23,630 nt of DNA, taken from the IMG/VR virus record IMGVR_UViG_2563366867_000003; one strand, given 5' to 3'. Of the stretch, positions 15,001 through 18,000 are shown piece after piece. Every line of letters begins with the position of its first letter. The first letter of the stretch is position 1. Source of the stretch: a virus. Its lineage: Duplodnaviria; Heunggongvirae; Uroviricota; Caudoviricetes. Made by a program: the position numbers.

Positions 15001-18000
15001 GTTGGGACTGGTTGGTGGCGTACCCGGACTGGTGATGCTGGGGGCAGCAGCATGGTATACGCTGTACCAGAATCAGGAGCAGGCCAGGGAGTCAGCGCGC
15101 CAGTATGCACTGACGATAGATGAAATCGCGCATAAAACGCCGTCAATGTCTTTGCCTGAAGCCTCAGATAATGAAGGACGAACACGGGCGGCGCTGACAG
15201 AGCAGAACCGGCTGATTGATGAACAGGCCAGCCGGGTGAAATCCCTGCAGGAAAAAATCGCTGGATATCAGTATGTTCTGGCTAACCCTGGCTGGACAAC
15301 CGGTGACGGATTCATGATAAACCATCTGACATCGGTGAAGACCGTAACGGAAGGGCTTTCTCAGGCAACAGAGCAGCTTGCCGTTGAGCAGTCCCGTCTG
15401 GCACAGATGCAGGAAAAAGCGCAGTCCATTCAGGATGTGCTTGCCGGGCTGGAAGACCGTCGTGTGGCGTTAATTCGTCAGCAGGCGGCAGAGCAGAATA
15501 AGGTGTACCAGTCCATGCTGGTTATGAACGGTCAGCATACGGAATTCAACCGTCTGCTGGGGCTGGGGAATGAACTGCTTCAGCAGCGGCAGGGACTGGT
15601 GAATGTGCCGTTACGGCTGCCACAGACCACTCTGGATAATAAACAGCAGAGCGCCCTGACAAAAACAGAGCGTGAGCTGGCCCTGTCCAGACTGAAAGGG
15701 GAAGAAAAAGAGCGTGCCCGGCTGTAATGCCAGTCAGTTAAGCAACTGACTGGCTCTTTTTCGGGGCTGTGGGGTATTTCCAGGGCCTCTCCTTTACCAC
15801 TCTCGGGAAGGCCCTTTCCCTTCTTGTCGGTAATTTCACAAGTTGTCCCATACTTGCAAGATCGCGCATCAGCTCCGGTATACGTCCCGGTGAAGCGCCC
15901 TGCAATGTCATCAGCATTCTCATCACCATTCCGCATGATTCTGAGAAACTCAGTTGATTCGGCCAGTAACCTTTCAGATGTTCCGCCATTTTAATCATCT
16001 GATATCTCACCAGATTATAAGCCAGTAAGACACCCCACAGCTCTTGCTCCACAAGCTCCGGCTTTTTACTTCTCAGCGTCAGCCTGCTCCGTTGCATCGT
16101 CTGTTTTATCTCCCTGTATCCCAGTTCGATTTCCCAGCGATGACTGTACAGATCCCCCATTTCTCCTCCGGGGAAGCGCATGGCGTCCGTCATCGACGTC
16201 AGCAGATGGCAGACTTTTCCTTTGCGCGTCACGGTCAGCAGGCGGGCAGTCACTTCATTTCCCAGTCCCGGCCACTTTTTTCGTGCCTGCGGGCTGGTTT
16301 TCAGCTTCACCAGATGATCGCCTTTACCCAGTTTTCTGATCTCTTCATATTGCGCTCCCTTTCTGAGAGGTATCATCCAGTGGCGGTGTTCTCCCGCCAG
16401 GCTCCAGGCATTTAACAGTCCCAGTGAGTAATAACCTTTATCCATTAACGTCAGAGTGTTATCGCCGGTTTGTTCTATAAGTTGCTCAGCAAGCTCATTT
16501 TCGCTGTTCTTCATCGTGCCGAAGGCTGCAGCCGTCAGCAGATGGCTGGTCAGTTCCATCTGGCAGACCATTTTGACCTGCGGGTAGAGCGCCGGGTTCC
16601 CGGCATGTGTCTGGCGGGGGAAGGCTGCATCGTTCTCTGGTGTATCCGGTGTGCGCCAGAACACACCATCGATGGCCAGCAGGGTCAGGCCGCACCAGTG
16701 CGGATGCGGCGTGGCGTTATGCCAGAGCTGCGCTGTTTTCGTGAACACGCGGCGGACAGCCTCACTTCCCAGGCGCTGGCGGGCCTGAATAACGGCACTG
16801 GGGGCAACGAAGGGGCGATTGCCCGGCAGCATGATGTCCAGGCGATTCACAATCTGGTGAAGAGGTTCTTTACGCTCAAGCGCCATGCCAACAATACACC
16901 AGACCATCATTTCGAGGGGAAGACGGCGCTTGCGTAGCGTTACAGTACCTGATTCGGCAAGGCAACGAGAGATGAGTTCGGGGTCGAGGTAATCCCCCAG
17001 AGAAGTCAGTGGGTTACGCAGAGAATCGTAACGGGATACCAGATCAAGAGCCTGTCCAATGTGCATAAAAAAATCCGGAAACAAGTGAGCGTTTCCGGAT
17101 TCTTACACAGCCACTGGATCGGTCAACTGATCCTTAACTGATCGGCATTACGTGCCCGGCTGGGGTATGCGGCCGATGACCTCGGTTTTGTGGGGGATTC
17201 GTATCAGGAGGCGAGACAGCGTTATATCAGTAATGCTCTGGAAGCCTGGCGTAATAACGAGGCGAACAAACCTAAATCCCGGGGTGGAAAATCAGAGACG
17301 GAAAAAGCGGAAGACAGTTTTTCCCGGCTACTGAAACAGCAGAAAGAGCAACTGGCACTGGCGGGTCAGAATACAGAACTGGCGAAGCTGAAGTACCAGA
17401 CTGCGCAGGGAGAACTGAAAACCCTGACGGAGATGCAGAAGCAGGAACTGCTGCGTAACGCGGCCCTGATTGACCAGCAAAAAATCCGGGAACAGTTGCG
17501 ATCCCGGGAAGAGACCCTGAAGAATGATAATGTGGCTGCGCGTGCATCAAATGAAGCCGAACTGCTGGGGTACGGGCAGGGAGAACGAGCCAGGGAACGC
17601 ATGCGGGAGTTGCAGCAGATCCGCGACAGCTTCCGCCAGAAGGATGCGGACCTTCAGTCTCAGTATCAGACCGGGGATATCAGTGAGGATTTTTACAGAC
17701 AGGCACGGGCACAGAACGCGCAGTATCTGAGCGAACGCCTTAAGGACCAGGCAGCCTTTTATGCCGAATCGGATGCGCAGCGTGCGGACTGGCAGAAAGG
17801 CTTGCAGGAGGGGCTCAGTAACTGGGTGGACAATGCATCCGATTACGCCTCTCAGGCAGCACAGCTGGCAACGGAGGGGATTTCAGGACTGGTGAATAAC
17901 ATCACGGAGATGCTGAACGGAAACAAAGTGGAATGGCGCAACTGGGCCTCATCCGTACTGCAGGAAATCTCAAAAGTTCTTATGAATGCCGCGATTGTCA

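Follow-up and report, generated by a model that had tools for sequence, protein, structure and literature searches.

The DNA analyzed here, a stretch of 23,630 bp (the window), corresponded to the late region of a lambdoid prophage of the BP-4795 type. It was 100% identical to the entire scaffold KE136848.1 of the draft E. coli assembly GCA_000408065.1, and the E. coli/Shigella host that the first-pass annotation had suggested from the presence of IS4 could thus be specified as E. coli. The genes were arranged in the order holin, lysozyme, Rz, HNH endonuclease, terS, terL, protease-capsid fusion and portal, followed by the head-tail connector genes, the major tail protein, the G/T chaperones, the tape measure, M, L, K, I, and the 5' part of J. 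The tape measure gene was interrupted by a copy of IS4, and the features found at the site were the following:

13766-15727, plus strand: 5' part of the tape measure gene, an ORF for a truncated product of 653 aa (Pfam TMP_3 and Phage_HK97_TLTM)
15713-15724, no strand assigned: left copy of the target-site duplication, CGTGCCCGGCTG, single-copy in the empty-site allele
15725-17150, minus strand: complete IS4, 1426 bp, 100% identical over positions 1-1426 to the copies of K-12 MG1655 and C600
15725-15742, no strand assigned: terminal inverted repeat at the insG 3' end, TAATGCCAGTCAGTTAAG, matching the other end at 16 of 18 positions
15729-15754, plus strand: putative terminator-like hairpin (11 bp) followed by TCTTTTT (-20.3 kcal/mol, z -2.4)
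15738-17066, minus strand: insG, the IS4 transposase gene, 442 aa, intact (Pfam Nterm_IS4, E 3e-33; DDE_Tnp_1, E 2.8e-31)
17099-17126, minus strand: putative promoter-like site, TTGACC, a 16-nt spacer and AAGAAT, reading into insG
17133-17150, no strand assigned: terminal inverted repeat at the insG 5' end, reverse complement TAATGCCGATCAGTTAAG, 16 of 18 positions matching
17151-17162, no strand assigned: right copy of the target-site duplication, CGTGCCCGGCTG, an exact repeat
17163-18446, plus strand: orphaned 3' part of the tape measure gene, codons 654-1080 (427 codons; Pfam Tape_meas_lam_C)

The inserted element had the same length as the IS4 of E. coli K-12, which is the founding member of both the IS4 family and the IS4 subgroup, and shared with it the 18-bp imperfect repeats and 100% identity. 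The description of a complete 1426-bp IS4 with its inverted repeats and transposase ORF was thereby corroborated, including the intact 442-aa insG. Location alone set this copy apart from that of K-12, since it lay in the tape measure gene of a prophage, at a site that partly matched the usual terminator-like target. When the 1426 bp were compared by megablast with 5426 complete E. coli genomes, full-length matches of 100% identity were obtained in MG1655, C600 and many others. IS4 was found in 2686 of the 5426 genomes, and the median number of matches per genome was one.

Members of the IS4 subgroup are 1400-1650 bp long and carry the terminal signature -AATR--------WTW-, inverted repeats and duplications of 10-13 bp (PMC2266710, Table 1). 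In the element described here (1426 bp), TAATG occupied positions 1-5 of both ends, and TTA positions 14-16. The transposase was encoded by a single ORF without a frameshift and contained the DDE domain and, at residue 307 of the insG product, the YREK motif, Y(2)R(3)E(6)K. Judged from its sequence, the element is IS4 itself in its canonical form, and, with its ORF and ends intact, it may be active in transposition. Cut-and-paste movement has been established for the IS4-family members IS10, IS50 and IS231A and is presumed for IS4.

The gene insG ran antisense to the phage late operon. The segment containing the promoter-like site (17099-17126) also folded into a strong hairpin with a U-run that paired with the insG AUG (-31.8 kcal/mol, z -5.4), and its function is likewise putative. 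At the opposite end, the terminator-like hairpin (15729-15754) was located 5 nt inside IS4 and faced the transcription entering from the tape measure gene.

Within the window, CGTGCCCGGCTG occurred as an exact copy just twice, at 15713-15724 and at 17151-17162. With one mismatch allowed, three matches were counted against 0.23 expected from shuffled sequences, and none of the shuffles reached three. The direct repeat was exactly 12 bp long, which is within the range of 10-13 bp of the IS4 subgroup; the neighboring bases differed and gave no extension on either side. The perfect 12-bp flanking duplications reported initially were hence verified, both as exact copies and as a sequence that is single-copy in the empty allele. 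The boundaries of the element also held when compared with IS4 references, to which it aligned end to end with 100% identity. In 10 other IS4 copies from viral contigs, duplications of 12-14 bp abutted the same terminal bases.

An uninterrupted allele, to be sought by alignment with related strains, was found in the prophage of E. coli ABU 83972 (NC_017631). This prophage aligned to the whole window in two pieces that overlapped by exactly 12 subject bases, and outside the IS4 insertion there were zero differences between positions 12898 and 20894. The joining of 13766-15724 with 17163-18446, that is, the removal of the element and one copy of the repeat, placed the 3' part in frame with the 5' part and gave 3243 nt with 1080 codons, a stop, and zero internal stops. 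This restored gene was base-for-base the ABU 83972 allele, which is annotated as a complete protein of 1080 aa (WP_000212987.1). The continuous frame of about 1080 codons that had been anticipated was thus obtained and, since both halves were 100% identical to the intact allele, IS4 proved to be the sole lesion of the gene, as had been claimed.

All indels that distinguish the window from ABU 83972 were checked, and three were present besides IS4. Those at 11098 and 20894 were single bases in intergenic positions, and the one at 2594-2603 was an extra 10-bp tandem copy that shortened a small, unnamed reading frame behind Rz. Otherwise, this comparison showed neither frameshifts nor stops in the known genes. 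The head, lysis and other tail genes of the window matched those of ABU 83972, and the view that the lysis and head genes look intact holds within the window, that is, for the late region. A PGAP "frameshifted" flag on the portal of ABU 83972 was considered as a second lesion and rejected: the layout is the same in BP-4795, where a portal gene of 454 aa is followed by an ORF overlapping it by 4 nt, and the flag was read as an annotation artefact.

Comparison with the Stx1 siphophage BP-4795 showed structural genes of the same lengths and in the same order, apart from the annotated starts and one 162-bp repeat fewer. The missing repeat fell in the ORF after the portal. BP-4795 has a tape measure gene (ORF67) of equal length at this position, with 3243 nt and 1080 aa, whereas that of the window was cut after codon 653. 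The tape measure protein of BP-4795-type lambdoid siphophages corresponds in function to lambda gpH and is in part homologous to it. Late regions of Stx phages hit by insertion sequences, as in E. coli O157, represent the same general process, but with a different IS family and target gene; in the phage records Stx2a_WGPS2 and Stx2a_1447, IS66-family transposase genes were located inside the region aligning to the window. In contrast to these, the lesion described here was clean, single, and in principle reversible.

The interrupted gene occupied the expected position of a tape measure gene, after the G/T chaperones and before M, L, K, I and J. Its upstream neighbors carried the domains Phage_TAC_1 and Phage_tail_T, and those downstream the domains Phage_min_tail, Phage_tail_L, NLPC_P60, Lambda_tail_I and GpJ. 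Tape measure domains were detected on both sides of the insertion: in the 653-aa product, TMP_3 covered residues 83-273 and Phage_HK97_TLTM residues 395-647, where it was cut at position 252 of the 295 of the model, and Tape_meas_lam_C was found in the 3' part. The stop codon of the truncated product, TAA (15725-15727), was formed by the first three bases of IS4. The frame was consequently interrupted after codon 653, and the product was left without the last 427 residues, including a C-terminus similar to that of lambda gpH. Residues 95-431 of the 3' fragment aligned to residues 497-850 of gpH (PDB 8iyk_H, E 1.4e-19), and the alignment ran through the C-terminal helix region to the conserved end of the protein. 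Homology to gpH was thus found in the C-terminal third, whereas the N-terminal two thirds carried TMP_3 and HK97_TLTM domains and were not lambda-like. In the lambda virion, the C-terminus of the tape measure protein is located in the tail tip, and residues 818-842 of gpH assemble into a three-helix coiled coil within the lumen of the tip, where a gpI trimer supports it (PMC10721106). The homology to this structurally characterized protein included the tip-anchored C-terminus. The gene belongs to the siphophage tape measure family, in disrupted form.

Lambda H is essential for tail assembly. Since the gpH-like C-terminus was lost, the prophage is predicted to make no tails of its own, its tail assembly being expected to fail. 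The first possible in-frame start of the orphaned 3' part was the GTG at 17190. No Shine-Dalgarno-like sequence was found in the 20 nt preceding it, and no promoter-like site was found on the plus strand between 15500 and 17400. A polar effect may lower the expression of M, L, K, I and J downstream; late transcription in lambdoid phages is Q-antiterminated, so the effect on M-J may be small. The heads might also be joined by tails that a co-resident lambdoid prophage supplies.

The distribution of the insertion was analyzed in public sequences. IS4 was present at this site in none of the 5426 complete RefSeq E. coli genomes, and an uninterrupted homologue spanned the site in 1954 of them, with 87 records at an identity of at least 99%. 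The carriers were found not by this search of complete genomes but by exact-protein look-up. The exact 653-aa truncated product was encoded on 151 public contigs (NCBI, ENA and Logan), including 5-Mb chromosomes and metagenomes, and the 418-aa downstream ORF on 96. The loci examined in addition to the window were six others fetched by exact protein match, among them two chromosome-size and two metagenome contigs, and two IMG/VR contigs. The left junction and the orientation were common to all the carrier loci examined (9/9), and the same 12-bp duplication was present at the right junction in each of those that reached it (7/7). These junctions were shared by five other assemblies, of isolates or metagenomes, and by the two IMG/VR contigs. 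The segment 13766-19000 was 100% identical in the carrier loci reaching that far, except for three clustered substitutions inside the IS4 of one of them (L006).

The carriers differed in substitutions clustered between 19000 and 23500, in the L, K, I and J genes, and in the copy number of the 162-bp repeat in the ORF after the portal. On the simplest reading, the carriers came to differ after the insertion, through recombination affecting the tail-tip genes L-J and through changes in the copy number of the repeat. The insertion is not private to one isolate; it is a shared lineage marker, and probably derives from one ancestral event inherited by an E. coli lineage. The initial description of the insertion as recent stood in part: nothing has decayed, but the identical insertion has been inherited by many isolates, as seen in the 151 contigs, and the carriers have since diverged.

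The target preference of IS4 was evaluated with 10 other independent targets rebuilt from viral contigs. These were terminator-like palindromes, in which duplications of 12-14 bp of the form CACC...GGTG were preceded by an A-run (-7 to -4) and followed by a T-run (+4 to +7). The consensus for IS4 targets is reportedly 'AAA-N20-TTT'. Homologous prophage sites had been struck by IS4 in both orientations, as in L016 versus L024 and L019 versus L028. At the tape measure site the A-run was present (AAAAAGAG before the duplication), and the palindrome and the T-run were weak. With a crude weight matrix built from the 10 other sites, it scored 4.9 bits and ranked 133 of 22164 positions in the IS-free window; nine of the ten training sites scored 13-29 bits and the tenth 1.4. 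The site is thus compatible with the IS4 preference but does not represent a strong hot spot. This moderate match favors shared descent over recurrence.

Several other explanations were weighed against a single inherited transposition. A multi-copy IS4 could have been misplaced within the tape measure gene by assembly or scaffolding, given that the window is an entire draft scaffold and that the IS4 repeat often breaks contigs, two of which (L008 and L009) ended inside or just after IS4. We regard the chance of this as practically negligible, because both junctions were identical in independent assemblies, including contigs of 5.19 Mb and 5.10 Mb (L003 and L004), and were seen again in other drafts, in two metagenome assemblies and in the two IMG/VR contigs. 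Moreover, real transposition leaves just such a mark, a perfectly duplicated 12-bp target of which the empty allele has one copy. Recurrent independent insertions at a hot spot would draw on the strong preference of IS4 for terminator-like sites (A-run, CACC...GGTG, T-run), on the A-run present here, and on the homologous sites struck in both orientations. Nevertheless, recurrence is very unlikely in view of the uniform left junction and orientation (9/9), the uniform duplication (7/7), and the 100% identical tape measure background of the carriers. The match of the site to the target preference was moderate, as described above, and with the uninterrupted site in 1954 of 5426 genomes and IS4 in about half, none was occupied.

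Two further readings concern the consequences of the insertion. The split gene would still work if the C-terminal 418-431 residues were translated, from the GTG at 17190 or by read-out from IS4, and the product nucleated short tails or cooperated with the N-terminal fragment. The downstream frame is indeed open and undecayed, gene callers annotate the 418-aa ORF, and in-frame deletions in lambda H give rise to shorter tails. Even so, a functional split protein is extremely improbable: the GTG lacks a preceding Shine-Dalgarno sequence, IS4 provides no outward promoter-like site on the plus strand, a terminator-like hairpin lies at its entry, and the absence of decay is equally explained by the youth of the event. 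A better chance, although still well short of even, was given to the reading that the insertion was neutral, having struck a prophage whose inducibility or other essential functions, outside the window, were already gone. The window covers the late region, with the early region lying outside it; many E. coli lambdoid prophages are cryptic, and the 10-bp repeat expansion alters the small ORF after Rz. The prophage may therefore have been dead before the insertion, which would then have been phenotypically neutral. Against this, every late gene in the window matched ABU 83972, the structural genes kept the lengths and order of BP-4795 apart from start-codon choices and repeat number, and the known genes contained no other frameshift or stop.

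Taken together, the results confirmed the earlier observation and supported its interpretation with the qualifications given above: in a lambda/BP-4795-like prophage, the tape measure gene was very probably split by a single IS4 transposition event. The IS4 DDE transposase would have cut the target 12 bp apart, between codons 653 and 654, and the repair of the gaps would have generated the 12-bp duplication. The interrupted gene terminates at the TAA contributed by the end of IS4 and yields the 653-aa N-terminal fragment. The downstream 427 codons, with no promoter-like site or RBS of their own, follow 1.4 kb of antisense IS4 starting with a terminator-like hairpin. After induction, heads and lysis would be expected, but no tails encoded by the prophage itself. 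The insertion would have occurred once, in an ancestor, and would now be carried undecayed by an E. coli lineage. With the perfect 12-bp repeats and the rest of the late region intact, precise excision would regenerate a functional tape measure gene. A reversible lock exerted by IS4, or selection for a prophage that lyses and packages without spreading, seems a highly improbable reason for the retention of the undecayed prophage throughout the lineage.

A literature search on IS4, tape measure and prophage found nothing relevant. Both the element and the kind of consequence are already known, and such insertions are an ordinary route to the disabling of prophages. The 653-aa and 418-aa "tape measure protein" ORFs in public E. 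coli records are the halves of one pseudogene and should be annotated as such. The IS4 junction offers a clean marker of the lineage, suited to PCR assays. The insertion adds one more documented case of an insertion sequence disabling a tail gene, in a prophage that is likely unable to spread and whose lysis and head genes are intact.

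Among prophages that were otherwise identical, a tandem repeat was found to differ in copy number in the unnamed ORF that follows the portal gene:
window 9773-10305: tandem repeat of 162 bp (54 aa), 3.3 copies with 92% identity, inside ORF 9548-10771.
No Pfam match was obtained for this ORF. Its product measured 407 aa in the window and in two other carriers of the same IS4 insertion (L004 and L008), and 353 aa in three more (L003, L007, and L009), while in the carrier L006 the ORF was broken. The counterpart in BP-4795, a Stx1-converting siphophage, was 461 aa long, compared with 407 aa in the window. 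The layout of two ORFs was the same in that phage: a 454-aa portal gene came first, and the ORF after it shared 4 nt with it. In the E. coli strain ABU 83972, which harbors a sister prophage, the portal gene is annotated by RefSeq/PGAP as a single "frameshifted" pseudogene (window 8187-10771; 9464-12048 in the ABU 83972 prophage locus, L001). This flag is probably an annotation artefact.

A shorter repeat was located near Rz:
window 2594-2621: 10-bp tandem repeat AATGCCGCTA, 2.8 copies.
The same 2.8 copies were present in L038, an IMG/VR contig carrying the same insertion, versus 1.8 in ABU 83972, and through the additional copy the small ORF after Rz changed from 74 to 64 aa. The substitutions between otherwise identical prophages were concentrated in the tail-tip and host-range genes L, K, I, and J (window 19000-23500), and the comparison of the window with L001 also revealed a cluster at window 20921-22383. 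To judge from these sequences, the region downstream of the tape measure gene is a recombination mosaic.

The targets of IS4 elsewhere, in other prophages (IMG/VR contigs L010-L042), were terminator-like palindromes in which CACC...GGTG was preceded by an A-run and followed by a T-run, and the duplications measured 12-14 bp. In two pairs of contigs (L016 versus L024 and L019 versus L028), the element had entered homologous sites in both orientations, which indicated that true IS4 hot spots exist in other prophages. The IS4 copy of L006 carried three substitutions within 20 bp (window-equivalent positions 16765, 16773, and 16784) between identical flanks, suggesting either gene conversion by a different variant of IS4 or copies mixed up in the assembly.

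Finally, a stable fold was predicted upstream of insG, the transposase gene of IS4:
window 17055-17130, minus strand: hairpin (-31.8 kcal/mol, z -5.4) and a U7 run after it, in the RNA 5' of insG.
The promoter-like -10 element of insG lies within this hairpin, and the folding prediction also placed the insG AUG in a paired state within the upstream RNA. The predicted hairpin looks like a shield of the transposase gene against read-through transcription from outside.
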